Assembly (NCBI GenBank): GCA_022825505.1
Contig: JAJDWR010000022.1
Coordinates: 15,046 to 79,045, forward strand
DNA length: 64,000 bases
Origin: Gammaproteobacteria bacterium
GTDB taxonomy: Bacteria > Pseudomonadota > Gammaproteobacteria > Steroidobacterales > Rariloculaceae
Reading direction: 5' to 3'
Both the position numbers and the translations under genes were made by a program. Under the pieces are notes generated by a model. It searched no databases and was not told the origin of the DNA. It worked only from the letters and a program-made list of their open reading frames with translations. Within the stretch, counting starts at the first letter, position 1. Each line of letters starts with the position of its first letter. Below are positions 6,692 to 58,456 of the stretch, one piece after another.

Positions 6692-6700
6692 GACACTTCC

Positions 6701-8599: not shown

Positions 8600-8733
8600 A
8601 CCATCCGCTACCGCCCGTTCCGTTCATCGGAAGGTGTGAGACTTTGGAACGCGTGATCGTGCCCGCCGACTTCAACGCCGGTGACTTCAGCGCCGGTTGA
8701 CAAGTAACGGACCCTGTTCCCACAATAGCCGCA

Positions 8734-8891: not shown

Positions 8892-9055
8892 GCGTCGTTC
8901 GTTCGTGGGTCGGGCACATTGCCCTCGAACGGGAAAGAGCACGCAGGTGCTCCTTCTCCCTGTAACGACATAGGACCAGGAACCGCGCCCGTAATGGTCG
9001 GCGGGTTCGGAGGTGTCATTACAGTGCGCCCCGGAAGGGGTGCGGGAGGAGATCA

Positions 9056-11781: not shown

Positions 11782-11784
11782 GCG

Positions 11785-13561: not shown

Positions 13562-13600
13562 CCCGGGTTGCGCATCGGCCCCTGCGGCAGACCCAGGTGC

Positions 13601-17051: not shown

Positions 17052-17550
17052 GCGCCATGGGCAGTCCCGCGACCATGAATTCCACCCGGCCGCAGACCGC
17101 GGCGACAGCCTGATTCAACGACCCCTGTGCATCGCGGAACCCGCGCCCCAGCGGCGTGCCCGGCACCAGGCCCATTCCCACCTCGTTGGAGACCAGTATG
17201 AGCGGTCCGGGAGTCCGGGCGATGAAGCGGGTCAGCGCCGCAGTCTGCGCTTCCACGTCCCGGCCGTAATGCATCAGGTTCGACAGCCACAGCGTCAGGC
17301 AGTCGACGACCACGACCCGGTCCGGAGACGCGGCCCGTTCCAGCGCGTCCACCAATTCCAGGGGCGCTTCCACCGTCGTGAACCCGGGCCCGCGGTCGGC
17401 GCGATGGCGCTCGATGCGATCGGCCATTTCCGGATCCGATGCCTCCGCGGTGGCGACGAAAATCCGGTCTGGCGCCGTGTCCCGGGACAGTTCGATCGCC
17501 CGTTGGCTCTTGCCCGACCGTGCACCGCCAACAATGAGTATCGTCTCCAT
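17041..17550 (-). CDS. cobU: bifunctional adenosylcobinamide kinase / adenosylcobinamide-phosphate guanylyltransferase
   Basis: 169 aa. P-loop ILIVGGARSGKS, VATAEA, VVVDCLTLWLSN, LVSNEVGMG. Its 3' end overlaps the cobD 3' end by 11 nt (convergent). Confidence 0.9.
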   Translation of the reverse strand: METILIVGGARSGKSQRAIELSRDTAPDRIFVATAEASDPEMADRIERHRADRGPGFTTVEAPLELVDALERAASPDRVVVVDCLTLWLSNLMHYGRDVEAQTAALTRFIARTPGPLILVSNEVGMGLVPGTPLGRGFRDAQGSLNQAVAAVCGRVEFMVAGLPMALKG

Positions 17551-21391: not shown

Positions 21392-22723
21392 GTGTTGGAA
21401 GAACTTGGCATTGTCGGAGTCTCCTGGCGCCAGGACGGCAGCGAAGCCCTGGCACGCTTCGCCCTGCCGGAGGCCGGACGCGATGAGCGCCTGCGTGGTT
21501 TCGCGCGGCAGGCCGGTCTTGCGGAACTCGCATATCTCGATACCTGCAACCGGGTCGAGATCCTCTTCGCGCGCGCCGCCGACAGCGCTCCGGGCGATAC
21601 ACGCCACGATGACATACGCCCCCTGGCGTACGAACTCCTCGCGGGGCGAACACCGGCCCCCGGGGAAGCGGAGCGAACGCTCAAGGCATGGCAGGGCGAA
21701 GGCGCCTGCGAACACCTGTTCCTGGTGGCGGCCGGGCTGGACTCGGCGGCGGTGGGCGAAGTGGAGATTGTCGGGCAGGTTCGTGCCTGCCGCGATCTTG
21801 CGGCCGAAACGGGATTGAGCGGACCGCGGCTGGAACTGCTCTTCGAAGAGGCGCTGAGCATCGCGGCACGGGTACGGGGCACAACCCGCCTCGGCCACGG
21901 TCGCGTATCGCTGGCCGAGGTGGCGGTGGTGCGACTCCGCGAGCGGCTGAAGCGAACGCCCGGAGCCGTGGCGCTGGTGGGGGTATCGGCCATGACCGAG
22001 CGTGCGGCACGCTCGCTGGCGAAGGCGGGAACACCGTTGATCTTCGTCAATCGAACGCTGGCCAAGGCCCGGTTGGCGGCTCAGCCCTACTCCGCGGCGG
22101 CCGTATGCCTGGCCGACTTTCTGCGCGATCCGCCGGCCGTGGAGGTTGTCCTGAGTTCCGCCGGCGCGCCCGAACCACTACTGACGGAACCCGCGCTGGA
22201 ACGCATCGCCGCGAAATCGCCGTCCGGTCAGGCGCCGCTCTTCGTCGACATGGCCGTACCGGAAAACATCGACAGCGCCGCCTGCGAAAAGCTCGGGCTG
22301 CCCCGTATCGGCATGGACGAAATTGTCCGTGAAGCGCAGGTCAACCGGGAGGCCCGGCTGCTGGAGGCAGCCCAGGCCCGTCAGCTGGTGGACCAGGCCC
22401 TGCCGCGGCTCCGGGACCGGTTTGCCGAGCGCGTTTACGGCCCAATGTTCGGCGCGCTGCAGAACCGCTACCGCCACACCGCCCGGGAAGGCGTGCGGCG
22501 GCTGCTGAAGAAGGACCTCAAGGGCCTCGGGGATGCGGAGCGTCAGGCCATCGAGACCTGGGCGGAGGTGCTGGCGCGTCGCTTCGCCCATATTCCCACG
22601 CTGGGAATGAGAGGGCTCCTTCACCATGGACCCGACGGCTCGCTGGACGCCTTTCTCGAGGGCCTCGACCCGAAATTCTCCGAGGAGCTGCGTCAGGCCC
22701 TGGACCGTGGGGCAGTGCGATGA
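21392..22723 (+). CDS. hemA: glutamyl-tRNA reductase
   Basis: GTG start. Catalytic-Cys motif YLDTCNRVEI, GEVEIVGQVR, and an NADPH domain VALVGVSAMTE. Confidence 0.9.
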   Translation: MLEELGIVGVSWRQDGSEALARFALPEAGRDERLRGFARQAGLAELAYLDTCNRVEILFARAADSAPGDTRHDDIRPLAYELLAGRTPAPGEAERTLKAWQGEGACEHLFLVAAGLDSAAVGEVEIVGQVRACRDLAAETGLSGPRLELLFEEALSIAARVRGTTRLGHGRVSLAEVAVVRLRERLKRTPGAVALVGVSAMTERAARSLAKAGTPLIFVNRTLAKARLAAQPYSAAAVCLADFLRDPPAVEVVLSSAGAPEPLLTEPALERIAAKSPSGQAPLFVDMAVPENIDSAACEKLGLPRIGMDEIVREAQVNREARLLEAAQARQLVDQALPRLRDRFAERVYGPMFGALQNRYRHTAREGVRRLLKKDLKGLGDAERQAIETWAEVLARRFAHIPTLGMRGLLHHGPDGSLDAFLEGLDPKFSEELRQALDRGAVR

Positions 22724-23778
22724 AACTCCGCATCGGAACCCGGGGGTCCCATCTCGCCCGCACCCAGGCGGCCGGCGTTGCCGAATCACTGGCTGATCTC
22801 GGCCACGGCTCCGATCTCAGGATCATCAAGACCGCGGGCGATCGTTCCACGGCCACCTCGTTCGGGTCCATCGGCCCTCAGGGTGTCTTCGTGCGCGAGA
22901 TCGAGCACGCCTTGCTCGCCGGCAAAGTGGATATCGCGATCCACTCCTTCAAGGATCTGCCCACCCAGTCACCGGACGAGCTGACCATCGGGGCGGTACC
23001 GGAACGGCTTGACCCTGCCGACGTATTGGTGACGACACGGGAGGCGGCTTCCGTGTCGGCGGAAGCCCTGCCTGTCGTCAGCGGCGCCCACGTGGGGACG
23101 GCATCGGCCCGGCGCCAGGCGTGGATCCGGCATCTTCGGCCGGACATCGTGGTGGTGCCCATTCGCGGCAACGTGCCGACGCGCATCGACCGGCTGCGGA
23201 CGGACCTGGACGGCGTGGTGCTCGCGGCGGCGGGAATCCAGCGTCTGCGCCGGAGTCCGCTGGACGGCGTCGCCGATCCGGTAACGGATGAAATCGCGGT
23301 TCACAGGCTCAGGCCGGTGGATTTCGTTCCCGCACCGGCCCAGGGGGCGCTGGCGATCCAGTGCCGGCGAGGCGACGCCGAAATTTGCGAACTGCTGGAT
23401 TTTCTTGACCACGCCGCGACCCGCCAGGCGGTGCGGGCCGAACGCGCGCTGTTGGCACGGGTGGAGGGCGGTTGCGACCTGGCCTTCGGCGCGTGGTGTG
23501 ACGTTCCGGCTTCATGGGGAGGATCGCCGTCCGGCCGTCACGGTACTGACGCTTCGTCGAGTGGTCGCGCCGACAGGCCGGTCACGGGTCAGGTCCGGCT
23601 CGTCGCCTGGCTCGACCGCGGCGGCATGCTTCTCAAGGCCGATACGCGCACGCCGGATGCCGACCCCTGCGCCCCGGAAACAACCGCGACGACATCGAAC
23701 GCCGACGCGCGCGCATCGGAATTCGACCTGGCGGTGAACACGGCATGGACAGAACTGGAGCGGCAATGGACCGGGTGA
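22720..23778 (+). CDS. hemC: hydroxymethylbilane synthase (porphobilinogen deaminase)
   Basis: MKLRIGTRGSHLARTQA, HSFKDLP, IRGNVPTRI, VEGGCDLAFGA (cofactor Cys). ATGA overlap with hemA. Carries a low-complexity insertion and a C-terminal extension. Confidence 0.9.
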   Translation: MKLRIGTRGSHLARTQAAGVAESLADLGHGSDLRIIKTAGDRSTATSFGSIGPQGVFVREIEHALLAGKVDIAIHSFKDLPTQSPDELTIGAVPERLDPADVLVTTREAASVSAEALPVVSGAHVGTASARRQAWIRHLRPDIVVVPIRGNVPTRIDRLRTDLDGVVLAAAGIQRLRRSPLDGVADPVTDEIAVHRLRPVDFVPAPAQGALAIQCRRGDAEICELLDFLDHAATRQAVRAERALLARVEGGCDLAFGAWCDVPASWGGSPSGRHGTDASSSGRADRPVTGQVRLVAWLDRGGMLLKADTRTPDADPCAPETTATTSNADARASEFDLAVNTAWTELERQWTG

Positions 23779-24620
23779 AGGGCCAGCGGGTGCTCATCAC
23801 GCGAGCCGCCGAAGACTGCGCCGCCTGGGCTTCACGACTGGCGGATGCCGGCGCGGTACCGCTGATGCTGCCGTGCATCGAGTGCCACCCCATCCGCGAT
23901 CCAGGCATCGACACGTGGCTTGCCGCAGCACTGCCGACGGCAGACTGGCTGGTGCTGACCTCCCGGCGTGGGGCCGAGGCACTGGATCGACTGATTTCCC
24001 GCATCGACTGGACTTCCACCGACAAGGCGACCATGGCAGCCATCCGAATTGCAGCCGTGGGGCCGGCGACCGAAGCTGCGGCAGCCTCGCTTCCCGGCCA
24101 GGTCGAACTCGTGGCGCCGGGCGGCACCGCGAAATCTCTCGCCGAGGCGCTGGCGGACCGCCTCCGTGCCCGCACGGCCGATGGCCCGCTACACGTCATG
24201 CGTGACAGTCCGCGGCAAGGGAACGGCGCCGCGCTGCGGCCGCCGTGGCGGTCAAATGCAGCGGGGGGTTCGCCACGGACTGCCAAATGCCTGATCGCCG
24301 TGGCGGAGAACGCGGGGAACATAGTGGAGGAAACGCTTGAGCAGGCAGGCGGCGACTGTCTGCGGCTTAACGTCTACCGCACAACGCCGGCCGCGCCGGG
24401 GACTTCAAAAAAGGCGCTCTCCGAACTGGGTGCGGATAAAATCCTCCTGGCGAGCCCCTCCGCGGTGACGGGGCTGGTGAACCGGCTTGAACTCGATGCG
24501 GCCGTGGAGATTCTGACGATCGGCCCTTCGACCACGCGGGCGGCCCGCGCCGCCGGACTGGCCGTGACCGCGGAGGCGCCCAGACCCAGTCTGGAAGGGC
24601 TGATGGAGGCCATGCAATGA
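23766..24620 (+). CDS. hemD: uroporphyrinogen-III synthase
   Basis: RVLITRAAED, WLVLTSRRGAEA, VYRT, ILLASPSAV pattern of HemD. Alternative ATG at 23745. Overlaps the hemC end. Confidence 0.75.
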   Translation: MDRVKGQRVLITRAAEDCAAWASRLADAGAVPLMLPCIECHPIRDPGIDTWLAAALPTADWLVLTSRRGAEALDRLISRIDWTSTDKATMAAIRIAAVGPATEAAAASLPGQVELVAPGGTAKSLAEALADRLRARTADGPLHVMRDSPRQGNGAALRPPWRSNAAGGSPRTAKCLIAVAENAGNIVEETLEQAGGDCLRLNVYRTTPAAPGTSKKALSELGADKILLASPSAVTGLVNRLELDAAVEILTIGPSTTRAARAAGLAVTAEAPRPSLEGLMEAMQ

Positions 24621-25621
24621 GCGAAACGAACGTTACCGTGCCGGGGCGGGTACGACCCAGGCGACTGCGCCGCAATCGGGTCATCCGCGATCTCGCGGCC
24701 GAGACCCGTCTCGCCCCGTCGCAGTTCATCGTGCCGCACTTCGTGCTGGCCGCCCGCAAGGCCGAGCGGCCCATCCCGTCCATGCCCGGCATCGCGGAAC
24801 TGGGCCTGGACAACCTGCTCGGCCGGGTCGCGGCGGACCTGGACCTGGGCATCCGCTCGGTGCTCCTGTTCGGCCATCCGGACGATGAAGGGCACAAGAC
24901 GCCCGACGGCCTGGCGGCGTGGGCCGGCGACGGTGCGGTGCAACGCGCGGTCCGCCGACTCAAGGCCGAATTCGGCGACGATCTGGTGGTCATGACCGAC
25001 GTCTGCCTGTGCGCCTACACCGATCACGGCCACTGCGGGATCGTCGACGGCGGTGACGTGGTCAACGACGCCTCCCTGGTTCCGCTGGTGCGCACCGCCC
25101 TGAGTCACGCCGAAGCCGGCGCCGACGCGGTCGCGCCCTCCGACATGATGGACGGGCGCGTCGCCGCCATCCGGGATGCCCTTGACGGGGCGGGGCACCA
25201 ACGGGTCATCCTGCTTGCCTACGCGGTCAAGTACGCTTCCGGCTACTACGGGCCGTTTCGCGACGCGGCGGACTCCGCACCGTCGTTCGGCGACCGGTGC
25301 AGCTACCAGATGGATCCGCGCAATGTCCGCGAGGCAATTCGGGAGGCGCAGCTTGACGAGCAGGAGGGCGCGGACATGCTGATGGTCAAGCCCGCACTGG
25401 CCTACCTCGACGTGATCCGGGCGGTACGCCGCGCCAGCAACCTGCCCCTGGCCGTATACAACGTGTCCGGGGAATACGCGGCGGTCAAGGCGGCAGCAGC
25501 CAACGGTTGGCTGGAAGAGGCGCAGGTCGTGCGGGAAAACCTGATGGCCATGCGCCGCGCCGGCGCCGACCTGATCATCACCTATCATGCCCGGGACGCT
25601 ATCGAGGGAGGTTGGCTGTGA
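24617..25621 (+). CDS. hemB: porphobilinogen synthase (Zn-type ALA dehydratase)
   Basis: RPRRLRRN, Cys-rich Zn site DVCLCAYTDHGHCG, APSDMMDGRV, MVKPALAYLD (Schiff-base Lys). ATGA overlap with hemD. Confidence 0.92.
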   Translation: MSETNVTVPGRVRPRRLRRNRVIRDLAAETRLAPSQFIVPHFVLAARKAERPIPSMPGIAELGLDNLLGRVAADLDLGIRSVLLFGHPDDEGHKTPDGLAAWAGDGAVQRAVRRLKAEFGDDLVVMTDVCLCAYTDHGHCGIVDGGDVVNDASLVPLVRTALSHAEAGADAVAPSDMMDGRVAAIRDALDGAGHQRVILLAYAVKYASGYYGPFRDAADSAPSFGDRCSYQMDPRNVREAIREAQLDEQEGADMLMVKPALAYLDVIRAVRRASNLPLAVYNVSGEYAAVKAAAANGWLEEAQVVRENLMAMRRAGADLIITYHARDAIEGGWL

Positions 25622-26973
25622 GCGAGCAACGCGTCAGTAAACGATCAACGCAGTGGTTCGACCGGGCGCTCGAGGTCCTGCCGGGCGGCGTGAGTTCCCC
25701 GGTACGGGCGTTCGGGAGCGTCGGGGGCACACCGCCCGTCATTCGAAGCGGTGACGGAGCCCATGTAGTCGACGTGGACGGTAACCGGTACCTGGACTTT
25801 GTCGGCTCGTGGGGCCCCCTGATACTGGGCCATGCCAACCGGCACGTGGTCAGCGCCGTGCTCGACGCCGTGCAGGGCGGCACATCCTTCGGCGCACCAT
25901 CCGCCGTGGAGATCGAATTGGCCGAGGAGGTGGTGGCCGGTTATCCGGGTATCGAACAGGTCCGCTTCGTCTCCTCCGGCACCGAAGCCGTCATGAGCGC
26001 CGTACGCCTCGCCCGGGGCGCCTCCGAACGCGACATCATCGTCAAGTTTTCCGGCTGCTATCACGGTCACGTGGACCACCTGCTGGTGGCGGCCGGCTCG
26101 GGGCTTGCGACGTTCGGCACCCCGTCATCATTGGGTGTGCCCGAACCGAGCGCATCGCAGACGCGCGTGCTGCCACTGGACGACGATGACGCCCTGGCTG
26201 CGCTCTTCGACCGGGAAGGCGACCGCATCGCCGCAGCCATCATCGAGCCCGTGCCCGCAAACAACGGCCTGCTTCTCCAGCGCCCCAGGTTCCTCGCCAC
26301 CTTGCGCGAGCATTGCACGCGCCACGGGGCGCTCCTGATCTTCGACGAGGTCATTTCCGGATTCCGCCTGGGCCCGGGCGGTGCGGCCGCTCACTACGGC
26401 GTGCAACCGGACCTCGCCACGTTCGGCAAGGTCATCGGTGGCGGCATGCCGGTGGGTGCGTTCGGGGGACCGCGGGAATTGATGCGGCACCTTGCACCGA
26501 CCGGCGGCGTTTACCAGGCCGGCACCCTGTCGGGGAACCCGGTGGCCATGACGGCCGGTCTGGCGACGCTCAGATACCTCCAGCAGTACGATTGCTGGGA
26601 AGGCCTGGAGGAACTGGGCCAGTACCTGAAACAGCGTCTCGGCAATGTCCTGAAGCGATCCGGCGTTCCGGCAACCCTGGTGCGCATCGGTTCGATTTTC
26701 TGGATCGCCTGGGGTTCGACCGCCGATCCGCGCTCCGCAGAGGCGATCCACCCGGATGCCGCAAGTATCTACCGCGACGTGTTTCACGGCCTGCTGGAAC
26801 GCGGTATCGCGCTGGCGCCGTCCGCCTACGAAGTCGGCTTCCTGTCGCTGGCTCATCGTCCCGGACACATCGACCTGCTCGCGGACACCCTTGCGGAAGT
26901 TCTCGACAACCTGAAACGCAAGGGCGATCCAACCGCTCCGGCAGACGCGGAACCGGCCGGGAGCCAGTCATGA
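25618..26973 (+). CDS. hemL: glutamate-1-semialdehyde 2,1-aminomutase
   Basis: GTG 25618 overlaps the hemB TGA. Motifs LPGGVSSPVRAF, SGTEAVMSAVRLAR, FDEVISGFR, TFGKVIGGG (PLP Lys), GTLSGNP. Confidence 0.92.
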   Translation: MSEQRVSKRSTQWFDRALEVLPGGVSSPVRAFGSVGGTPPVIRSGDGAHVVDVDGNRYLDFVGSWGPLILGHANRHVVSAVLDAVQGGTSFGAPSAVEIELAEEVVAGYPGIEQVRFVSSGTEAVMSAVRLARGASERDIIVKFSGCYHGHVDHLLVAAGSGLATFGTPSSLGVPEPSASQTRVLPLDDDDALAALFDREGDRIAAAIIEPVPANNGLLLQRPRFLATLREHCTRHGALLIFDEVISGFRLGPGGAAAHYGVQPDLATFGKVIGGGMPVGAFGGPRELMRHLAPTGGVYQAGTLSGNPVAMTAGLATLRYLQQYDCWEGLEELGQYLKQRLGNVLKRSGVPATLVRIGSIFWIAWGSTADPRSAEAIHPDAASIYRDVFHGLLERGIALAPSAYEVGFLSLAHRPGHIDLLADTLAEVLDNLKRKGDPTAPADAEPAGSQS

Positions 26974-28058
26974 TTCTCAAGCGCGATCCCAGCAAGGCGC
27001 TGTTGCTTGGTTTTCTCGCCCTGCTGGCCATTTCCACCGCACAGGTGGCATGGTGGGTCGCCGACCAGAGAGGCCTGGCGCGCCAGGAACGGGACCGTGT
27101 CACGGCACTTTACGAAGCCGACGCGCTGGCGGTAACCGCAGCGTTCGCCCAGGCCACGCCCCAACTGCCGGAACTGATGCCGCATCTCGAGATCGACCCG
27201 GAACTGGGCACGGCCACGGTGCGTCCGGAATCCCTGGAGGCGCTCGCCGCGGATGCCGACTCGCGAATCAACCGCTACACGTGGGAGGGGGGGTTCTTCC
27301 TGCTCGTTCTTCTCGGCGGCATGACCGTGCTGACACGCACCATCCGCTACGACACACAGCTCAGGAAGCGTCAGCAGAATTTTCTTGCGGCCGTCTCCCA
27401 CGAACTGAAGAGTCCGCTGGCCAGCATACGGCTGGCGGCCGAAACGTTGATCCGGCGATCGGACGGCGGCCACACCGAACGGCTGGCCCGGCGCATGCTC
27501 GAAGACGGCGAACGGCTGCTGCGCATGGTCGAGAATCTCCTGGATACCACCCGGCTCGAGGACGGCCGGATCGAACTGAAGGGAGAATCGGTGGATCTGA
27601 GCAGTGCGGTGACCGCGGAGGTGGCGCGCTACCTGGAACCTGCGCGCTCCCACGGCATCGAGATCCACGTCGATGTCTCCGATGAGTTGCGAATAGAGGC
27701 CGATCCCGTCGCCATCGAAACGGTGCTGCGAAACCTGCTGGACAACGCCATCAAGGCATGTGTCGCGGCCCGGGGGCGGAACGTGTGGGTCGACGCGCAA
27801 CCGGACGGGAGTGTCGTGCGGATCAACGTACGGGACGATGGCAGCGGTTTCCTGCCCGACGATGCCGCCATGATCTTCGAGAAGTTCTATCGCCTGGGCG
27901 ACGAAATGCGCCGCTCCACGCCGGGTACCGGGCTGGGGCTTTACCTGGTCCGCGGCCTCGCGGAACTCTCCGGCGCCCGCGTCAGCGCCGCCAGCGAGGG
28001 GCCGGGTCTCGGTGCGACCGTCACCGTGAAGTGGCCGGCCGCGAGTCCGCCGGCATGA
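26970..28058 (+). CDS. membrane sensor histidine kinase (two TM segments, about 85-aa periplasmic loop)
   Basis: ATGA overlap with hemL. H-box AAVSHELKSPLASI, N-box LRNLLDNAIKA, G-boxes DDGSGF and GTGLGLYLV. The upstream part of ORF 26313.. is R/G-rich and overlaps hemL, so it is rejected. Confidence 0.85.
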   Translation: MILKRDPSKALLLGFLALLAISTAQVAWWVADQRGLARQERDRVTALYEADALAVTAAFAQATPQLPELMPHLEIDPELGTATVRPESLEALAADADSRINRYTWEGGFFLLVLLGGMTVLTRTIRYDTQLRKRQQNFLAAVSHELKSPLASIRLAAETLIRRSDGGHTERLARRMLEDGERLLRMVENLLDTTRLEDGRIELKGESVDLSSAVTAEVARYLEPARSHGIEIHVDVSDELRIEADPVAIETVLRNLLDNAIKACVAARGRNVWVDAQPDGSVVRINVRDDGSGFLPDDAAMIFEKFYRLGDEMRRSTPGTGLGLYLVRGLAELSGARVSAASEGPGLGATVTVKWPAASPPA

Positions 28059-28774
28059 ACGCGGCGGCAAATCCGGCCCGGATCCTCGTGGTGGACGACG
28101 AGAAGCACCTGGCCGACGGCGTGTGCGAAATTCTCCGGGCCGAGGGCTATGCCGCAGAGGTGGCCCATGACGGAGTGGAAGGCTTGCGCAAGGCGCTTGC
28201 GCACAGCTTCGACCTGATTCTGCTGGACGTGATGATGCCGAAGATGGATGGGCTCAGAGCCTGCGAGGAACTGCGCCGCAACGGCCTGCACACGCCGGTG
28301 CTGTTTCTGACCGTCAAGGGCGCCCCCGAAGACCGCATTCGCGGTCTGGAAGCCGGCGGGGACGACTACCTGGCGAAGCCGTTTCATCTGAAGGAATTGC
28401 TGCTGCGCGTCGCCGCCATGCTGCGCCGCAGCCACTGGTACTCGCGCGCGGGGCAGACGCTCGGCTTCAACGGCAATACCATCGACTTTCTGACGTATCA
28501 CGCCACCGCGTGGGACGGCAGCGACCACACGCTGACCCACAAGGAAGCCATGATCCTTAAATTTCTGGCCGAACAGGACGGCGCGATCGTGCCGCGGGAA
28601 GACATCCTGGACCGGGTCTGGGGTTACGAGGTGTATCCGTCTACGCGCACCATCGACAACTTCATCGTGCGGCTGCGCAAGCGCTTCGAACGCAATCCCG
28701 AGATGCCGGAGCACTTCCATACCGTGCGCGGCGTCGGGTACCGGTTTACCCGGCATGCGGAGCAATCCCAATGA
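28055..28774 (+). CDS. OmpR/PhoB-family response regulator
   Basis: ATGA overlap with the kinase. Receiver motifs ILVVDDE, DLILLDVMMPKMDG, KG. Winged-helix C-terminus TVRGVGYRF. Confidence 0.88.
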   Translation: MNAAANPARILVVDDEKHLADGVCEILRAEGYAAEVAHDGVEGLRKALAHSFDLILLDVMMPKMDGLRACEELRRNGLHTPVLFLTVKGAPEDRIRGLEAGGDDYLAKPFHLKELLLRVAAMLRRSHWYSRAGQTLGFNGNTIDFLTYHATAWDGSDHTLTHKEAMILKFLAEQDGAIVPREDILDRVWGYEVYPSTRTIDNFIVRLRKRFERNPEMPEHFHTVRGVGYRFTRHAEQSQ

Positions 28775-29793
28775 CGGGCGAGCGCTTGCTGTTGAAGGCG
28801 ATTCGCGGCGAGGCCGTCGAGCGGCGCCCGCTGTGGATCATGCGCCAGGCCGGGCGCTACCTGCCCGAGTACCGCGAACTGCGCCGGTCGTACCCGTTCA
28901 AGGCGGTGGCCCAGTCCCCGGAGCTTGCCGCCCGGGTGACGCTGATGCCCATGGCCCGTTTCCCGCTGGACGCGGCCATCGTCTTCGCCGACATCATGAG
29001 CCCGCTGCCGGCGCTGGGCGTCGAGTTCGATTTCGATCCGGGCCCGGTGGTGGAAAAGCCCATCCGCGACCGGGCCGGCGTGGACGCGCTGACGCCGCCC
29101 GATCCCGCCAGGCTCGGCCCCGAAGTGCTCGCCGCGTTGCGGCAGACCCGTGACGCGCTCCCGGCGGAAACGGCGCTGCTGGGATTCTGCGGCGCACCCT
29201 GGACGCTGGCCGCCTACCTCGTGGAGGGGCGCGGCAGAAAGGACTTCCCGAAACTGCGCGCGTTCGCCGCAGCCGAACCGAAACTGCTGGAGATCCTGCT
29301 GCGCAAGCTATCCGGGGCCATGGCCACCTACCTGGTCAGTCAGGCACGCGCCGGCGCCGACGCCGTACAGGTGTTCGATTCCTGGGCCGGTCTCCTGTCT
29401 CTGGCCGACTGGGAACGGCTCATTCGGCCGCACCTGGAGATGCTCCTGCAGACCGTTGGCGAGGCCGGCGTGCCGAGAATCCTGTTCCTTCAGAACGCGC
29501 CCCATCTGCTGGACGCCTACGCCGGCCTGCCTGCCGAGGTGTTGGCGGTCGACTGGCGGGTGGACATCGCCGAGGTGCAGCGGCGCTATCCTTCGCGAGC
29601 CGTGCAGGGCAATATCGATCCGGCCGTTCTGCTTGGCGGCGCCGCACCTACCCGGGCCGCGGCGGTTGCTTTGTTGCAGCAGGTCAGGCCAGAGGGCCAC
29701 ATCGTGAATCTCGGTCACGGCATCCTGCCGCAAACACCACTTGAGAGCGTCTCGGCCCTGGTCGACGCCGTACACGAGGAGCAAGCAACGTGA
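28771..29793 (+). CDS. hemE: uroporphyrinogen decarboxylase
   Basis: PLWIMRQAGRYLPEY, FADIMSPL, GFCGAPWTLAAYLVEG, VFDSWAG. ATGA overlap with the response regulator. Confidence 0.92.
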   Translation: MTGERLLLKAIRGEAVERRPLWIMRQAGRYLPEYRELRRSYPFKAVAQSPELAARVTLMPMARFPLDAAIVFADIMSPLPALGVEFDFDPGPVVEKPIRDRAGVDALTPPDPARLGPEVLAALRQTRDALPAETALLGFCGAPWTLAAYLVEGRGRKDFPKLRAFAAAEPKLLEILLRKLSGAMATYLVSQARAGADAVQVFDSWAGLLSLADWERLIRPHLEMLLQTVGEAGVPRILFLQNAPHLLDAYAGLPAEVLAVDWRVDIAEVQRRYPSRAVQGNIDPAVLLGGAAPTRAAAVALLQQVRPEGHIVNLGHGILPQTPLESVSALVDAVHEEQAT

Positions 29794-30512
29794 CTGAACC
29801 GACCCGAGAGGTCAAATCCGTGGACCTGAGCGAGAAGGGCATGCACAAGGGCCGGCCCATCTCGCTGGATCGCCGCCTGTTCATGAAATTCACCGCGTTC
29901 AATGGCTGCGGGTCCGGGCAGGACGCCGCGCAGGCTCTTGCCGACGCCGGAGTGGAAGGTGCCATGTACGTCGACACGAACGATCCAACGGGCATCGGCG
30001 TCATGGCGATAGCCGAGGATCCGGAATTTTTTGCGACGACGCTGCGCGACACCTTCAATGGGCCACCTTTCGCCGGCATGAACCACAAGGACGAATTCGA
30101 CATGCTGGGGCGCAGCTACTCCATCGGATACGAACCGGACCTTGAGGATACGCTGCTGGTAAAGCCCCGCGCCAAAGTCCTCAACCCATCCTTCACCTGG
30201 GCCGTGTGGTACCCGCTGCAGCGTTCCAAGAGCTTCTACGTGCTGCCCCGGGACAAGCAGCGCCAGATCCTCGCCGAACACGGCTCCATAGGCCGGCGAT
30301 ACGGCGTTGCCGGACTCGCGGCGGACGTCCGCCTGGCCTGCCACGGACTCGACAAGCACGACAACGATTTCGTGATCGGATTGCTGGGGCCGAACCTGTT
30401 CCCCCTCTCGGCCGTCGTCCAGGAAATGCGCAAGACCGAACAAACCTCCCAGTACCTGGACAGCCTCGGCCCCTTCTTCGTCGGCCGCACCGCCTGGCAG
30501 AGCACCCCCTAG
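29790..30512 (+). CDS. chlorite-dismutase-family protein (HemQ/ChdC-like coproheme decarboxylase candidate)
   Basis: 240 aa. GTGA overlap with hemE. Chlorite-dismutase-family pattern: WAVWYPLQRSKSFY, ILAEHGSIGRRY, GLDKHDNDFVIGLLGPNL, VQEMRKTEQT. Confidence 0.7.
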   Translation: MTEPTREVKSVDLSEKGMHKGRPISLDRRLFMKFTAFNGCGSGQDAAQALADAGVEGAMYVDTNDPTGIGVMAIAEDPEFFATTLRDTFNGPPFAGMNHKDEFDMLGRSYSIGYEPDLEDTLLVKPRAKVLNPSFTWAVWYPLQRSKSFYVLPRDKQRQILAEHGSIGRRYGVAGLAADVRLACHGLDKHDNDFVIGLLGPNLFPLSAVVQEMRKTEQTSQYLDSLGPFFVGRTAWQSTP

Positions 30513-30521
30513 GTCATCCCC

Positions 30522-31583
30522 ATGACCTTCTACGATAACGCCGCCCGGGACTACGACGCCGTCCTGATCGTGTCCTTCGGCGGCCCGGAAGGTCCGGACG
30601 ATGTCATGCCGTTCCTGGACAATGTGCTGGCGGGCCTGCGCGTGCCGGCGCCTGTCAAGGCGCGTATAGCCCGGCGCTACCACCGCTTCGGCGGGGTCAG
30701 CCCGATCAACAGGCACACGCGCGAGTTCATCGCGGCGCTGGAGCGGGAACTGGCCGCTTCCGGGCCAGCGCTGCCCGTCTACTGGGGCAATCGAAACTGG
30801 CACCCCATGCTGGGCGACACGCTCGCGCGGATGGCCGCGGACGGCGTCGGCCGCGCCATCGCCTACGTCACCAGCACCTTCAGTTCCTACAGCGGCTGCC
30901 GCAAGTACCGCGAAGATCTCTACAACGCGGTCACGGGCCTTGACGGTGCGCCGCACATCGACAAGCTGCGCATCGGGTACAACCACCCGGGGTTTATCGG
31001 AGCGATGGCGGACCGGCTCCGCGATGCGCTCCGGCGGGTTCCGAAGACAGGGGCACAACCGGCGCTATTGTTCACGGCCCACAGCCTGCCGCTTTCCATG
31101 GCCGGGGCGTGCGACTACGTGAGTCAGTTGCGCGAGGCCTGCTCACTCACCGCGAAAATGGCCGGCGCGGGGCCGTGGGAATTGGTGTACCAGAGCCAGA
31201 ACGCATCCTACGGCGAGCCGTGGCTCGGGCCGGACATCGAAGAGGCGCTGGAAACCGTTCGCGCGGCGGGCCACACAGGCGTAGTCGTCGCACCCATCGG
31301 CTTCGTGTGCGATCACATGGAAGTGGTGCTGGACCTGGACGTGGAGGCGGCGGAGAAAGCGGACGAACTCGGGCTCGACATGGTACGCGCCGGCACGGTG
31401 GGCGCCCATCCCGCCTACGTACGCATGGTGCGCGATCTGATCGTCGAGCGAATGACGGCCGATCCGGAGCGTCCCGCGCTGGGCGGCCTGGCGCCCGGTC
31501 ACGACTTCTGCCCCGTCGACTGCTGTCTTTCCGGCCGGCCCGGCGAGCCCCGGGGCGCGCTCTGCGGTGCGGAGTTGACGTGA
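30522..31583 (+). CDS. hemH: ferrochelatase (possibly coproporphyrin-type, with C-terminal Cys cluster)
   Basis: AVLIVSFGGPEGPDDVMPFLDNV, RYHRFGGVSPIN, LLFTAHSLP, VAPIGFVCDHMEV. C-terminal CPVDCC...C extension. Confidence 0.88.
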   Translation: MTFYDNAARDYDAVLIVSFGGPEGPDDVMPFLDNVLAGLRVPAPVKARIARRYHRFGGVSPINRHTREFIAALERELAASGPALPVYWGNRNWHPMLGDTLARMAADGVGRAIAYVTSTFSSYSGCRKYREDLYNAVTGLDGAPHIDKLRIGYNHPGFIGAMADRLRDALRRVPKTGAQPALLFTAHSLPLSMAGACDYVSQLREACSLTAKMAGAGPWELVYQSQNASYGEPWLGPDIEEALETVRAAGHTGVVVAPIGFVCDHMEVVLDLDVEAAEKADELGLDMVRAGTVGAHPAYVRMVRDLIVERMTADPERPALGGLAPGHDFCPVDCCLSGRPGEPRGALCGAELT

Positions 31584-33058
31584 CGAAAACGCATCGCTGC
31601 GAGGCGGTGGTGATCGGCGCGGGCCTGGCGGGACTCAACGCCGCCGTTCATCTCCAGGATGCCGGCCTGGACGTGCGGGTTGTCGAGGCTCGGAATCGGG
31701 TGGGCGGCAGGGTGCGGTCCATGCGTGAACTCGGCGGCAACCTGGAAGCCGGCGGCACCTACATCGGCGCTGCGTACCGGCGCGTGATCGCCGCGGCCGC
31801 GCGCCACGACGTGAGGCTCATCGACGTCACGCCCTCGCTGAAGTTTTTCAGGGAGCAGGACCTGGTGCTCGACGGCGCTATCATCCGCCAGTCCGAGTGG
31901 CCGGCTCATCCTGCCAACCCGTTTCCCAATCCGGACAGGGCGCTGATGCCCTGGACCTTCAGCCGAGTACTGACCGCCCGGGAGAACCCGCTGGAAGAAC
32001 CGCGGAACTGGCTGGACCCCCGGCAGACCGAGCACGACGTATCGATGTACGAATGGATGCGTGGACTCGGACTCGACGATAAGGCGATTCGGGTCGGTTA
32101 CGGGATGAATGTCAGCTACGGAGAGGATGCCCAAGACATATCGGCGCTTCAGTTGCTGTTTCGTGCGGCGTTCTCCAGGGCGCAAGCGAACACGTCCGCA
32201 ACGGCGGGTAGATTTCCCGGTGGCGAGTCGGCGCCATCTTCATCTTCATCTTCTGTGACCTCAACCGGCGCGAGGGGCTATACGGTTGCGGACGGTGTAC
32301 AGCGAATCCCCGAGGCGATGGCCGAGTCGCTGGTCCAGCCGGTACATTACGGCCGCACGGTCGGGCGGATAGAAGACGACGGCAGGCACGTCACCGTTTT
32401 CTGCGAGGGTGGCGCCGAGTACAAGGCAGCATACGCCGTCTGTGCCCTGCCCTTCACAGTCCTTCGCCGCATCGATTTCGACCCGCCATTGCACGGTTCC
32501 CAGCGGGAAGCCGTCGCGAGCCTGCCGTCCCAGTCCATGACCCAACTGTACTTCGCTCACAAATCCGAATTTTGGGAAGCGGACGAATATGCTCCGAGCC
32601 TGTTCACCGACACGGCCGCAGGCATGTTTTCTGCGATCCGCAACGGCAGCGATCCCACGCAAATCGCCGGGTTTTCGGCCTGGGTGATGGGTCGAAACGC
32701 GTCGCAGCTTGATGCTCTGCCGCCCGAATCGGCCGGTGCGCGGGTTATCGAGGAAATCGAAGCAGTGCGTCCGGCCGCTCGCGGGCAGTTGAAGTTCATC
32801 GGGCGGCAAAGCTGGGGAGCGGATCCCTTCGCCCGCGGCGCATGGGCCTATTTCCGTCCCGGACAGATCACCCGCTTCGCCGCCGCGATGGGCGCACCCC
32901 ACGGCCGGGTCCGGTTCTGCGGCGAGCACCTGGCCGTGGCCAACCGCGGGATGGAGGGCGCCATGGAGTCGGGCGAGAGCGCCGCAATGGGAATCCTTGC
33001 CCCGCGCCGGTCGCGCAAAGCCGAGCTTTCAAACCAATCTGACCAGCGCCACCATTAA
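31580..33058 (+). CDS. FAD-dependent amine-oxidase-family flavoprotein (MAO-like; candidate porphyrinogen oxidase)
   Basis: GTG 31580 overlaps the hemH TGA. Dinucleotide fold VVIGAGLAGLNAAVHLQDAGLDVRVVEARNRVGGR. C-terminal FCGEHLA...GMEGAMESGESAA typical of flavin amine oxidases. The ORF part 31109..31579 is R-rich, overlaps hemH, and is rejected. Confidence 0.75.
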   Translation: MTKTHRCEAVVIGAGLAGLNAAVHLQDAGLDVRVVEARNRVGGRVRSMRELGGNLEAGGTYIGAAYRRVIAAAARHDVRLIDVTPSLKFFREQDLVLDGAIIRQSEWPAHPANPFPNPDRALMPWTFSRVLTARENPLEEPRNWLDPRQTEHDVSMYEWMRGLGLDDKAIRVGYGMNVSYGEDAQDISALQLLFRAAFSRAQANTSATAGRFPGGESAPSSSSSSVTSTGARGYTVADGVQRIPEAMAESLVQPVHYGRTVGRIEDDGRHVTVFCEGGAEYKAAYAVCALPFTVLRRIDFDPPLHGSQREAVASLPSQSMTQLYFAHKSEFWEADEYAPSLFTDTAAGMFSAIRNGSDPTQIAGFSAWVMGRNASQLDALPPESAGARVIEEIEAVRPAARGQLKFIGRQSWGADPFARGAWAYFRPGQITRFAAAMGAPHGRVRFCGEHLAVANRGMEGAMESGESAAMGILAPRRSRKAELSNQSDQRHH

Positions 33059-33420
33059 CCCAGCCCCGGCAGGCGCGGCGGGAACAGGACCGTCAACGCG
33101 CCCACGTAGAAAACCAGCCAGCCGACCGTCACCAGGAGAAGGTACGTCTCACTGAGCACTTTGGCGCCCAACCATCGCAGGACCATGGCCGGTCCGGCAT
33201 AGAGCGCAACGCACACCAGGACGCGTGCAGCGATGCCGACCGGAGCATTGGCGTCCATGAACGCACCACCCGTGGCGTTGCGTACCAGGAAGTCCGAACC
33301 CATCGCAATGACGACAAACAGCACCGTCCATGGATCGCGTAGGACCAGATCGAACAGGAGCCAGACACTTGCCACGATGAGGCTGCCCAGCCAAAGCGTC
33401 CATCTTGCGCGTATGTTCAT
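33055..33420 (-). CDS. small integral membrane protein, unknown function
   Basis: Start ATG 33420 (MNIRARWTLWLGSLIVASVWLLF). About four hydrophobic helices. 4-nt 3'-end overlap with the preceding gene. Confidence 0.45.
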   Translation of the reverse strand: MNIRARWTLWLGSLIVASVWLLFDLVLRDPWTVLFVVIAMGSDFLVRNATGGAFMDANAPVGIAARVLVCVALYAGPAMVLRWLGAKVLSETYLLLVTVGWLVFYVGALTVLFPPRLPGLG

Positions 33421-33536
33421 GGAGTTCCACCCACGGAGTTCAATCCGTCCAGGGGCGAGTCGAAGTCGATCCACGCCGGCCCTGGTGCAGCGGGATCGGG
33501 TATCCTTGCATGAAAACCTGTTTGGGGAGTAGCCAA

Positions 33537-34592
33537 ATGTACTATTCAGGCGCAATCAGGACCCTCACCTTACTATGGCTCTGGCTCCTTGCGGGCACCG
33601 CATTCGCACACCACTCGCTGCTCACTTACGATCCCGGCGAGATCGTCGAATTCGAGGGTGAAGTCACGAACGTGTTCTGGCGCAATCCCCACGTGCAGCT
33701 GACGGTCAGGACCACGGACGAGGACGGCGGCGAGCGGGTCTGGACCGCCGAAGGTTCTCCCGTCAACGCGATGGAGCGTGCGGGAATTACCGAGGCGGTG
33801 GTTTCCGTGGGGGAACGCGTCAGGGTGACGGCAAACCCTTCCAGGCTTGTCGAGGATGAGGCCAGACTCGTGCTGCTTACCCTGACCGATGGACAGTCGT
33901 TCGTGTTGAACACGGAGGCGGCCGCAGCGCTCGGCCTTCCGGCCTATACGTCACAGGCTGTCCCGGCAGGCGGCGCCGCGGTGGCCGGCGCCGAGGGCTA
34001 TCCCGAGGCTACCGGCATCTTTCGAGTCTGGACGAATCGCGACCGGCACTGGGTTGCGCGCGATGTCCGGGAGTGGTGGGCCAGGACCCACCCTCTGACG
34101 GAATCGGCCCAGGCCATGCTGGATGCGTGGGACCCGGTGGCGGACGATCCTGCAAGACAGTGCATTCCGGCTGGCATGCCCGAAGCCATGCTCATGCCCT
34201 TTCCGATCGAATTCGTCGATCAGGGCGACATCCTTGTTCTGAATATAGAAGAGTGGGACAACTCGCGCACGATTCACCTGAATGCGGATCCTGACGCGGA
34301 CATGCCTCCCTCACGGCTCGGCTATTCCGTCGGACGCTGGGAGGGCGACACGCTGATCGTGGAAACCAGCCGCATCGACTATCCTTACTTCAACGACCAG
34401 GGCATTCCGCAAAGCGAGGCTCTTGCGATGGTCGAGCGATTCACGCTCAGCGAAAACGGCACGAAGCTGGACTGGACGGCTACGGTGACCGATCCGGAAA
34501 CGTTCACGGAACCAATCATCATGCCGGAGTTCCACTGGGACTGGATCCCCGGGCAGGAGATCAAGCCCTACAACTGCGTCGTAGCCGAGTAA
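33537..34592 (+). CDS. secreted protein, AxA|HHS...NPH family, paralogue 2
   Basis: Signal peptide ...LLWLWLLAGTAFA followed by HHS, with NPH 28 residues on. Motifs GYSVGRWEGDTLIVETS, VERFTLS, TVTDPETFTEP, YNC. Alternative ATG at 33510. Confidence 0.7.
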   Translation: MYYSGAIRTLTLLWLWLLAGTAFAHHSLLTYDPGEIVEFEGEVTNVFWRNPHVQLTVRTTDEDGGERVWTAEGSPVNAMERAGITEAVVSVGERVRVTANPSRLVEDEARLVLLTLTDGQSFVLNTEAAAALGLPAYTSQAVPAGGAAVAGAEGYPEATGIFRVWTNRDRHWVARDVREWWARTHPLTESAQAMLDAWDPVADDPARQCIPAGMPEAMLMPFPIEFVDQGDILVLNIEEWDNSRTIHLNADPDADMPPSRLGYSVGRWEGDTLIVETSRIDYPYFNDQGIPQSEALAMVERFTLSENGTKLDWTATVTDPETFTEPIIMPEFHWDWIPGQEIKPYNCVVAE

Positions 34593-35415: not shown

Positions 35416-36321
35416 CTACATCATCCGGCTGATGATTCTGTCACCCTGCTCCTTCGTCAAAGCCTCGGTCCGGTGGGCGATGGGGCCGCCCTCGTCCAGC
35501 ACCGGTTCGGCGGCGTCCAGGGACGGACGGTCCTTGACGTGAAGAAACAGACCCGTGTAGATCGTATCGCCCCACACCATGGCCTTCTCGCAGGCCGCCT
35601 TCCAATCGCCGGTATCGTGGTTCTCGTCCTCGAGCTTCTTCACCCGGCGCTTGAAGAACTTCACGGTGTTGTCGTGGTTGAAGGTAATGCAGGGACTGAA
35701 GATGCTGATCAGGGAGAACCCCTTGTGCTCGATGGCCTGTTGCATGAGCATCGACAGGTGGCGGGTGTCGGAACTGAATCCCCTGGCGACGAAGGTGGCG
35801 CCGTTCATGATGGCCGAGGTGATCGGGTTGAACGGAAACTCGATACTGCCGTAGGGAGAACTCTTGGTCTTCATGTCCAGCGAACTGGTGGGGGACAACT
35901 GGCCCGTGGTCAGGCCGTAGATCTCGTTGTCCATGACGATGTAGGTCAGGTCCACGTTGCGGCGGGCGGTGTGGGTGAAATGGTTGCCGCCGATGCCGTA
36001 GCCGTCGCCGTCCCCGCCGGTGACCACCACGTTCAGTTCGTGGTTGGCCATCTTCGCCCCGGTCGCCACGGCCAGGGCGCGCCCGTGCAGGGTGTGCATG
36101 CCGTAGGAATTGAAGTAGCCGGGAAAGTTCGACGAACAGCCGATGCCGCTGACGGTCAGTATTTCGTGGGGCTTGAGTCCCATGTCCAGACAGGCCTTGC
36201 GCATGCTGTTGAGGACGCCGAAGTCGCCGCAGCCCGGGCACCAGTCCGGATCCACCCTGCCCTTGTAGTCGTTGGCAGTCTCCGGATCGAGTACAAGCTG
36301 CCTGGTGTCGATTCCATCCAT
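35416..36321 (-). CDS. korB: 2-oxoacid:ferredoxin (acceptor) oxidoreductase, beta subunit (TPP-binding)
   Basis: WCPGCGDFGVL, GIGCSS, VVVTGGDGDGYGIGGNHF, IVMDNEIYGLTTGQ. Confidence 0.88.
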   Translation of the reverse strand: MDGIDTRQLVLDPETANDYKGRVDPDWCPGCGDFGVLNSMRKACLDMGLKPHEILTVSGIGCSSNFPGYFNSYGMHTLHGRALAVATGAKMANHELNVVVTGGDGDGYGIGGNHFTHTARRNVDLTYIVMDNEIYGLTTGQLSPTSSLDMKTKSSPYGSIEFPFNPITSAIMNGATFVARGFSSDTRHLSMLMQQAIEHKGFSLISIFSPCITFNHDNTVKFFKRRVKKLEDENHDTGDWKAACEKAMVWGDTIYTGLFLHVKDRPSLDAAEPVLDEGGPIAHRTEALTKEQGDRIISRMM

Positions 36322-36332
36322 AGTTGAATCCT

Positions 36333-38117
36333 CTAGACCATGATTTCCTGATACGGAATGTAGTGATCCGTCTTGCCGGCGACCTGCTCGATGACGCCGT
36401 CGACGATGTGGTGGGGCATGAACGGCTCGCCATCGTACTTTCGGATGTGGCCGTCGACGCTGAGCCCGGTCTCGCTGCGCAGGTAGCGGTAGAACTGCCC
36501 GGAGTAGTTGTTCTCGACGATGATCGTGCGCTTCGCGCGGCTGACCGCATTGATGACTGCCTGTGCGTGGAAGGGCACGATCCAGCGAATCGCAAGCTGG
36601 TTGGCGGTGATGCCCTTGTCGGCCAGTTGCTCGATGGCCTCCCCGATCACGCCCTCGGTCGAGCCCCAGCCGATCAGGGTGACATCGGCGTCCTCCGGGC
36701 CCTGTAACTCGGGAGCCGGAATCTGCTCGATGATGTTGGCGATCTTGCGGGCGCGTTTCTCGACCATGCGGCGGCGCTTGTGGGGGTCGGTGAACTCGTC
36801 GCTGATGAGCACGCTGTCCTGGTCGTGTTCATCGGTGGCAACCACGTGCGCATACCCGGGAACGCCCGGCAGCGCCCGCGGGGACACGCCGCTTTCGGTG
36901 TCCTTGTAGCGCAGGTATTCGCCGTTGGGCGCGGCGCCGTTGGCAATCATCTCGCCACGGTCGATTTCCGGGTACAGGTCGATCCCGTCCGGATCGGCGC
37001 TGAAGGTGCCCTCCGAGATCAGCAGGTCCGTGATCACGATGCCCGGGCACTGGGCCTGGTCGCAGAGATTGAAGATTTCCGGTACCACGTTGAAGGCGTC
37101 CAGCGCGTCCGTGGGCGCCACGATCAGGCGTTCGAAGTCGCCCTGGCTGGCGCCGAGCGCCTGCCACAGGTCGCCCTGCTCGGTCTTGGTGGGCACGCCG
37201 GTGGACGGGCCCGCGCGCATCACGTTGATGAACACCGCCGGGATTTCCATCATGGCGGCGGAGCCCACCGCCTCGGTCATGAGCGCGAAACCGCCGCCGG
37301 AGGTCGCGCACATGGCCCGGGCTCCGACGTGGGCCGCGCCGATGACCATGTTGGCCACTGAGATCTCGTCCTCGGCCTGACGAACCATGATGCCCAGATC
37401 CCGGGCGTTGCGGGCCATCCAGTGGAGCACGCCGGTGGAGGGGCTCATGGGGTAGGCGGAGTAAAACTTGACGCCTGCCGCGGCGCCGCCCATGGCCAGC
37501 GCGTCGTTGCCCGTCCACAGCGCCAGGGGTTTGGCGCCCGTGGGCAACGGCTCGGACAACGGCTGGAAATTCTCGATCGCGTAGTCGTACCCGGCGCGCG
37601 CCGCCGTGACGTTCTCGTTCACCACGGCGTCGCCCTTGCGGCCGAACTGCAGCTTCAGGGCCTGCTCGAGGACGTCGAATTCGAGACCCAGCAGATTGGT
37701 GATCACGCCCAGGGCGATGGTGTTCTGTATGACCCTGTTGCGGCTTCGGTTGGAGAGTTGCTTGACCGGCATGGGGCAGAGTTGCACGCCGTCTGCGGCT
37801 TCGCCGGGCTTGATGGTGTCGCTGTTGTAGATCGCCCGGCCGCCGGCGCCCAGCAACCCCAGGTGGCGATCCATGGTGTCCTGGTTCAGGCAAAGCAGCA
37901 TATCCAGACTGTCGCCGTGACTGTAGATCTGCCGGTCGCTGATGCGCATGGTCAGGTAGATGTGCCCGCCACGGATGATCGACTGGTAGGCGTTGTAGGC
38001 GTAAAGCCAGAGGCCGCGGCGGGTGAATAGCCGCGCCAGAATACTGCCCGGGGTGGCGATGCCCTGCCCCGCGGCCCCTCCGATGGCGAGCGTGAACTCG
38101 AATTGCCCTGAACTCAT
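36333..38117 (-). CDS. korA: 2-oxoacid:ferredoxin (acceptor) oxidoreductase, alpha subunit
   Basis: 594 aa. N-terminal gamma-like domain (IGGAAGQGIATPG) fused to the alpha domain (YSAYPMSPST, GFALMTEA). Lies 11 nt upstream of korB. Confidence 0.88.
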   Translation of the reverse strand: MSSGQFEFTLAIGGAAGQGIATPGSILARLFTRRGLWLYAYNAYQSIIRGGHIYLTMRISDRQIYSHGDSLDMLLCLNQDTMDRHLGLLGAGGRAIYNSDTIKPGEAADGVQLCPMPVKQLSNRSRNRVIQNTIALGVITNLLGLEFDVLEQALKLQFGRKGDAVVNENVTAARAGYDYAIENFQPLSEPLPTGAKPLALWTGNDALAMGGAAAGVKFYSAYPMSPSTGVLHWMARNARDLGIMVRQAEDEISVANMVIGAAHVGARAMCATSGGGFALMTEAVGSAAMMEIPAVFINVMRAGPSTGVPTKTEQGDLWQALGASQGDFERLIVAPTDALDAFNVVPEIFNLCDQAQCPGIVITDLLISEGTFSADPDGIDLYPEIDRGEMIANGAAPNGEYLRYKDTESGVSPRALPGVPGYAHVVATDEHDQDSVLISDEFTDPHKRRRMVEKRARKIANIIEQIPAPELQGPEDADVTLIGWGSTEGVIGEAIEQLADKGITANQLAIRWIVPFHAQAVINAVSRAKRTIIVENNYSGQFYRYLRSETGLSVDGHIRKYDGEPFMPHHIVDGVIEQVAGKTDHYIPYQEIMV

Positions 38118-58455: not shown

Positions 58456-58456
58456 T

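Follow-up and report, generated by a model that had tools for sequence, protein, structure and literature searches.

The stretch of DNA described here, 64,000 nucleotides of contig JAJDWR010000022.1 (assembly GCA_022825505.1, a gammaproteobacterium of the Rariloculaceae; called the window below), contains an 11-gene haem operon that ends in a gene for a flavin adenine dinucleotide (FAD) flavoprotein. We consider it likely that this is a complete, translationally coupled operon for the coproporphyrin-dependent (CPD) route to haem in a diderm bacterium, and that the flavoprotein acts in it as a recruited coproporphyrinogen III oxidase that is not orthologous to the known enzyme of that step, CgoX. 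It also seems somewhat likely that the flavoprotein stands for a third family of coproporphyrinogen III oxidases, recruited independently, and is a cytoplasmic descendant of periplasmic flavoproteins of the monoamine oxidase (MAO) branch that are exported by the twin-arginine (Tat) system.

Gene content and conservation of the haem operon

The gene identities and the conservation of the operon are direct observations. The gene order is hemA-C-D-B-L, a two-component system, hemE, a chlorite dismutase (Cld)-family gene, a ferrochelatase gene (hemH) and the flavoprotein gene (Table 1), with an ATGA or GTGA overlap at nearly every junction from hemA to the flavoprotein. A reading of the letters made without database searches (the sequence-only reading) had placed the last four genes in this order, with hemE and cld overlapping by GTGA, cld and hemH 9 nt apart, and hemH again overlapping the flavoprotein gene by GTGA; order, junctions and positions are all as it described. 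It had also noted that the operon has no hemF/hemN- or hemG/hemJ-like gene. This is borne out and extends beyond the operon: about 48 gene-like open reading frames (ORFs) were called in the window by codon-position G+C, most were scanned against Pfam, and none of those scanned belongs to the hemF, hemN, hemG, hemJ or hemY families.

The CPD route from glutamyl-tRNA to haem b has nine steps, and the operon has nine enzyme genes, eight of which could be assigned to eight of the steps through curated family models. The step left without an assigned gene is the oxidation of coproporphyrinogen III (the CgoX step), and the gene left without an assigned step is that of the FAD flavoprotein, a member of PF01593. 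Since the sole leftover gene belongs to the superfamily of CgoX and meets the sole leftover step, the flavoprotein is a candidate for the CgoX-step enzyme.

This arrangement recurs in related bacteria. More than 100 clusters, formed at 90% identity, share 56-97% identity with the flavoprotein, and all of them come from metagenomes or metagenome-assembled genomes (MAGs); the few named clusters are labelled Gammaproteobacteria, Candidatus Rariloculaceae included, except for one labelled Rhodospirillaceae. At every one of the seven distinct related places examined, a flavoprotein orthologue in this range of identity is the final gene of the same haem operon. The operon-bearing loci from other assemblies are L001/L002, L003-L005, L022, L086, L087 and L088, and the haem proteins of the window are 64-89% identical to their counterparts in L001. 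The flanks of the related operons differ, and the overlap or short gap at the hemH/flavoprotein junction is retained. Seven distinct places with different flanks share this order of genes, so the arrangement is not the product of chance. Among the called genes of the related flanks for which Pfam hits are recorded, none belongs to the hemF, hemN, hemG, hemJ or hemY families, and the records for the sampled flanks show neither a second PF01593 gene nor one of DUF1444 (YtpQ/CgoN). In L086, from Candidatus Rariloculaceae, a CysG-type siroheme synthase and a 3'-phosphoadenosine 5'-phosphosulfate (PAPS) reductase are encoded just downstream of the haem operon (12472-13908).

The Cld-family protein and the ferrochelatase were compared with enzymes of known structure. 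From its sequence and a structural model, the Cld-family protein is predicted to be a divergent coproheme decarboxylase (ChdC). All of its significant PDB sequence matches are of the ChdC/HemQ type (T. thermophilus, Geobacillus, Listeria, C. diphtheriae and S. coelicolor), with scores to solved ChdCs of about 25-31 bits, and ChdCs are also on top in a fold search made from a low-confidence model (predicted local distance difference test, pLDDT, 64.5; shallow alignment). Tyr141, in WAVWYPL, aligns with the catalytic Tyr (Tyr147 of LmChdC, Tyr135 of CdChdC), and His164, in AEHG, aligns with the proximal His (His174 of LmChdC, His158 of CdChdC); neither residue varies among 22 family members. The catalytic Tyr, whose loss the sequence-only reading would have counted against its proposal, is thus retained along with the proximal His. 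As to the distal Arg found in functional chlorite dismutases, the position aligned to Gln187 of LmChdC is Asp179, but an invariant Arg181 follows two residues on, in a part of the protein where the model is of low confidence.

The ferrochelatase groups by sequence with the coproporphyrin ferrochelatases. Of the PDB entries it is closest to 28wn, a coproporphyrin III ferrochelatase, with a score of 223 bits; the scores are about 118 for Firmicute CpfCs and about 92 for human ferrochelatase. Against NF000689 it scores 372.8 bits, slightly below the cut-off of 408. The Cys residues listed in Table 1 align with those of 28wn and are kept in all six orthologues compared, with a fifth Cys in most. 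This Cys pattern is typical of the [2Fe-2S] actinobacterial CpfC clade (PMC7340540), and suggests that the enzyme carries a [2Fe-2S] cluster as in actinobacterial CpfC, here in a proteobacterium.

The window contains TonB-dependent receptors (9056-10924 and 60138-63101), a di-haem cytochrome c peroxidase and a B12-salvage cluster; the host is therefore a diderm, in agreement with the sequence-only reading. That reading had gone on to call the pathway type unusual for such a host, which is right for Proteobacteria, reported as mainly users of the protoporphyrin route (PMC10740692), but not for diderms at large, as CPD genes are already on record in some diderm phyla (PMC10740692, PMC7611857).

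The two-component system (26970-28774) lies between hemL and hemE, in translational coupling with the gene on either side, and all related loci have it. It reached no NCBIfam equivalog match; it may serve in feedback regulation by responding to haem, iron or oxygen.

Table 1. Genes of the haem operon, and one feature within the flavoprotein gene, with positions in the window.
Feature	Position	Strand	Details
hemA (glutamyl-tRNA reductase)	21392..22723	+	First operon gene; PF05201 97 bits, and PF01488; ATGA overlap with hemC
hemC (porphobilinogen deaminase)	22720..23778	+	PF01379 218 bits
hemD (uroporphyrinogen-III synthase)	23745..24620	+	PF02602 131 bits; start codon uncertain; ATGA overlap with hemB
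hemB (porphobilinogen synthase)	24617..25621	+	PF00490 455 bits
hemL (glutamate-1-semialdehyde aminomutase)	25618..26973	+	PF00202 244 bits; GTG start overlaps hemB stop
Sensor histidine kinase, inside the operon	26970..28058	+	HisKA and HATPase_c
OmpR-family response regulator, inside the operon	28055..28774	+	PF00072 and PF00486; ATGA overlap on each side
hemE (uroporphyrinogen decarboxylase)	28771..29793	+	TIGR01464 367 bits (cut-off 303)
Divergent Cld-family protein, predicted coproheme decarboxylase (ChdC-like)	29790..30512	+	PF06778 57.9 bits (cut-off 25), residues 132-234, C-terminal half only
Ferrochelatase, coproporphyrin type (CpfC-like)	30522..31583	+	PF00762 254 bits; conserved Cys126 and C330-x3-C334-C335
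492-aa FAD flavoprotein, predicted coproporphyrinogen III oxidase	31580..33058	+	GTG start; PF01593 204.7 bits, residues 16-473
Ser-rich low-complexity insertion, flavoprotein residues ~203-232	32186..32275	+	Closest relatives only; pLDDT <50

Family placement and active site of the flavoprotein

Family placement and conserved residues can likewise be read directly from the comparisons. The full-length PF01593 match and a two-domain FAD/substrate fold put the flavoprotein in the flavin amine oxidase superfamily, and within it the protein belongs, by sequence and predicted fold, to the MAO / L-amino-acid oxidase (LAAO) / putrescine oxidase branch. Its best PDB sequence matches are human MAO-B (1e-30, full length), LAAOs, a bacterial monoamine oxidase and putrescine oxidase; a family profile of 16 sequences lifts the MAO-B match to 1e-46, and no protoporphyrinogen oxidase is found among the best 60 profile matches. 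Foldseek, run with an AlphaFold model of moderate quality (pLDDT 71.5; shallow alignment), ranks MAO, LAAO and putrescine oxidase best, with template-modelling scores of about 0.7, and the best 50 fold matches include no HemY-family structure.

Membership of the HemY/CgoX family is ruled out. Against the HemY equivalog TIGR00562 the flavoprotein scores 30.6 bits (cut-off 97.85), in a match limited to residues 7-60, which hold the N-terminal FAD motif, and against NF008845 it scores 33.9 bits (cut-off 560). A BLASTP comparison with the sequence of PDB entry 3I6D, B. subtilis CgoX (the sequence of the enzyme matches the entry over all 470 residues, with three differences), aligns residues 6-58, the FAD βαβ motif, and nothing else. 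Searched against the PDB, 3I6D itself returns protoporphyrinogen oxidases only, save for one weak N-terminal match to an LAAO.

The sequence-only reading had described the flavoprotein as more MAO-like than CgoX/HemY-like, pointing to the peptides VEARNRVGGR and GEHLA..GMEGAMESGESAA and to a Ser-rich insertion, SAPSSSSSSVTSTG; all three are found in the translation, and the likeness to MAO holds for sequence and fold. It does not hold for the active site, where the amine-oxidase signature has been lost. Nor is the Ser-rich insertion, though present, a defining or functional feature: it is confined to close relatives, varies among them in length and sequence (P0052 has up to about 40 more residues there) and is disordered by prediction.

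At the active site, Lys296 of MAO-B, the flavin N5 contact, is replaced by Gln322, which is invariant in 17 of 17 clade members. Of the aromatic cage of MAO-B, Tyr435 is deleted and Tyr398 has become Trp422; Cys397, which binds FAD covalently, is Ala or Gly in the clade, and the cavity residue Tyr188 is an invariant Arg195. Because Lys296 is changed to Gln, Tyr435 deleted, Cys397 gone and Tyr188 changed to Arg, the flavoprotein is not an amine oxidase by signature: the N5 Lys and aromatic cage shared by monoamine, polyamine and L-amino-acid oxidases are missing, and these residues make it unlikely that the MAO-type scaffold is a working amine oxidase. An LAAO-like reading was rejected in a comparison by eye rather than by a tool alignment, as no Arg was seen where LAAO has its carboxylate-binding Arg. 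Fourteen positions are invariant in the haem-linked clade and rare among its relatives; they include R103, R129 and R195, which could bind propionates.

Relatives, proposed reaction and rival explanations

When sequences are clustered at 50% identity, the haem-linked clade reduces to a single full-length representative, and the next relatives are only 30-44% identical. An N-terminal Tat signal peptide is present in 60 of 70 relatives in this range, whereas the haem-linked proteins have 8-20 residues (mostly 12) before GxGxxG and are without a signal peptide. None of the ten closest of these relatives that were fetched has a haem gene next to it. A pattern scan of genomes with a generic FAD motif returned, among the matches listed, one true orthologue (L022) and at least about 80 distant paralogues, and these paralogues served as a negative control for haem linkage. 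The 30-44% relatives form a large uncharacterised, Tat-exported "flavin monoamine oxidase family" group (L006-L012, L021; P0250-P0330). The contexts of paralogues at about 40% identity are mixed and have no common theme (TonB receptor, resistance-nodulation-division efflux, DUF885); a paralogue at 39% occurs in the Steroidobacteraceae MAG OZ257256.1.

In a neighbour-joining tree, the haem-linked clade is recovered with a bootstrap of 81-90 of 100 and is nested among Tat-bearing proteins. One protein, P0324 (43% identity), was considered as an intruder that breaks the clade; it was rejected as such, being a frameshifted orthologue whose conserved blocks are broken by Arg-rich out-of-frame translation. 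The simplest history compatible with these sequences would be that a periplasmic, Tat-exported flavoprotein was taken into a cytoplasmic haem operon, with loss of its export signal.

We infer the substrate of the flavoprotein, its electron acceptor and the role of its Arg residues. HemA, L, B, C, D and E would yield coproporphyrinogen III, which the terminal flavoprotein, a cytoplasmic FAD enzyme of the amine-oxidase fold, would convert to coproporphyrin III in a six-electron oxidation. As in HemY-type enzymes, flavin N5 would accept hydride from the meso-methylene carbons, and the flavin would be reoxidised, most likely by O2, giving H2O2. The CpfC-like ferrochelatase would then insert iron to form coproheme, and the ChdC-like protein would convert coproheme to haem b by way of Tyr141 and His164, probably with H2O2 from the flavoprotein step. 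In evolutionary terms, the flavoprotein would represent a paralogous displacement of CgoX by a member of a Tat-exported periplasmic MAO/LAAO-branch family, one that on recruitment lost its signal peptide and gained the clade-specific R103, R129 and R195.

Several points weigh against this interpretation. The oxidase activity of the flavoprotein is argued from operon logic. Its structural model is only moderate (pLDDT 71.5), with a poorly defined substrate domain, and Gln at the position of the flavin-N5 Lys is also found in most non-haem relatives and so is not specific to the new role. The Cld-family protein scores far below the HemQ equivalogs (NF042928, 41.9 against 235 bits; NF008913, 38.9 against 253), and its model is of low confidence in the haem-binding half. 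Finally, a canonical hemY/cgoX, or a set of hemF/N plus hemG/J, may lie elsewhere in the genome, beyond the 64-kb window.

This last point is the starting point of one alternative, in which a canonical CgoX/HemY, CgoN, HemG or HemJ is encoded elsewhere and the flavoprotein is an accessory that supplies H2O2 to ChdC or removes a toxic by-product. Such an arrangement would fit with several facts: only the 64-kb window of the genome was scanned, the 30-44% relatives clearly have non-haem roles, ChdC requires an oxidant and amine-oxidase-fold enzymes produce H2O2 (PMC13564367). The operon, however, would then miss exactly one step and yet carry a single surplus gene whose product has the fitting cofactor and fold, a pairing that is kept in all sampled lineages, and the sampled flanks have no second PF01593, hemG, hemJ or DUF1444 gene on record. 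We regard an oxidase elsewhere, with an accessory flavoprotein, as unlikely.

The operon might also be a protoporphyrin route in disguise, the flavoprotein acting on protoporphyrinogen IX and the ferrochelatase on protoporphyrin, with some other haem role for the Cld-family protein and a coproporphyrinogen decarboxylase encoded elsewhere. Against this, the ferrochelatase matches a coproporphyrin ferrochelatase at 223 bits and the human protoporphyrin enzyme at about 92, the catalytic Tyr and proximal His of ChdC are invariant, the significant PDB sequence matches of the Cld-family protein are all ChdCs, and neither hemF nor hemN was found near any locus, among scanned ORFs of the window or Pfam hits of the flanks. 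These observations make the protoporphyrin route very improbable, even though the Cld-family protein is very divergent, falls below the HemQ cut-offs and matches Pfam over its C-terminal half only, and even though B. subtilis HemY oxidises both porphyrinogens (PMC13564367). Least probable of all, and hardly credible to us, is a true amine oxidase that acts on a pathway amine such as 5-aminolevulinate or porphobilinogen, or on an unrelated amine, and that owes its place in the operon to regulation. The best sequence and fold matches are indeed monoamine, putrescine and L-amino-acid oxidases, and relatives are automatically annotated as "monoamine oxidase" or "FAD-dependent oxidoreductase", but the signature is gone (Lys296 to Gln, Tyr435 deleted), the cavity Arg would repel cationic amines, the arrangement is strictly conserved, and the destruction of a pathway intermediate from inside its own biosynthetic operon makes little sense.

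Neighbouring genes, known systems and meaning

The haem operon is preceded, a few kb upstream, by a cluster for the salvage and remodelling of B12 (5483-17550). On the + strand at 8719-8906, a cobalamin riboswitch (RF00174, 127 bits) lies upstream of a TonB-dependent receptor gene, which is followed by btuF/C/D-like transport genes, and cobT, cobS, cobO, cobQ, cobD, cobC and cobU surround it. Four DUF6152 paralogues (18744-19733, 33405-34592, 38343-39374 and 40338-41444) have glyoxalase, cupin and metallo-beta-lactamase genes as neighbours, and the same families again adjoin the haem operon in L001, L003 and L087. A two-subunit 2-oxoacid:ferredoxin oxidoreductase (35416-38117, - strand) is encoded downstream of the operon, as it is in L001. 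Further on, a cluster on the - strand (55158-63101) comprises two tryptophan-halogenase-family genes, SapC, a Cupin_8 protein and a 987-aa TonB-dependent receptor; it adjoins genes for glycoside hydrolases (GH3, GH16 and GH43), sugar transporters and a LacI-type regulator.

With CgoX/HemY (3I6D), the oxygen-dependent coproporphyrinogen III oxidase of the CPD pathway, the flavoprotein shares the PF01593 fold, an N-terminal GxGxxG, a predicted soluble and cytoplasmic nature, the genomic partners hemE, ferrochelatase and ChdC, and the same predicted reaction; it is nonetheless not an orthologue, HemY-family structures being missing from its best 60 sequence and best 50 fold matches. MAO-B (1GOS), LAAO (8P84) and putrescine oxidase (2YG3) are its best full-length sequence and fold matches, at 19-26% identity, but the flavoprotein is without the N5 Lys, the covalent-FAD Cys and the C-terminal membrane anchor, and its gene lies in a haem operon. 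CgoN/YtpQ, the oxygen-independent coproporphyrinogen oxidase of Priestia megaterium, is a FAD-using answer to the same step outside the HemY family, as is predicted for the flavoprotein; the fold of CgoN is reported to be like that of no other family and the protein to occur almost only in Bacillaceae (PMC10965808), whereas the flavoprotein has a standard amine-oxidase fold. As for its partners, the ferrochelatase has the Cys126, C-x3-CC and identical SFGGPEG motif of actinobacterial CpfC (28wn), and the ChdC-like protein has the VYP/WYP Tyr and AEHG His motifs of CdChdC. They differ from the actinobacterial CPD system in the diderm proteobacterial host, in the great divergence of the ChdC-like protein, and in the order hemE-chdC-cpfC-oxidase inside a whole-pathway operon with a two-component system.

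A 2026 Chemical Reviews article on haem names only CgoX and CgoN for the conversion of coproporphyrinogen to coproporphyrin and concludes that the known enzymes appear to cover all haem-synthesising organisms (PMC13564367); the paper on CgoN describes three types of flavin-dependent porphyrinogen oxidase and does not mention the flavoprotein family treated here (PMC10965808). Our full-text literature searches found no description of a haem-operon oxidase of the MAO branch. The new element is probably the oxidase, as an undescribed third kind of coproporphyrinogen oxidase beside CgoX and CgoN; it would amount to the displacement of one enzyme by a paralogue from the same superfamily, at a step of the pathway that is already known.

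If this interpretation is correct, the CPD pathway is native and self-contained in a gammaproteobacterial lineage that has many metagenomic representatives, and the list of terminal haem-synthesis enzymes is still not closed. Because automatic annotation labels the flavoprotein "monoamine oxidase" or "FAD-dependent oxidoreductase", pathway reconstructions of these bacteria would show an incomplete haem pathway. Selective antibacterials aimed at CPD enzymes are under discussion, and HemY-type oxidases are targets of herbicides; an active site of different build that carries out the same reaction would for this reason be of practical interest. A complete CPD pathway in Proteobacteria would further bear on the evolution and spread of both routes to haem.

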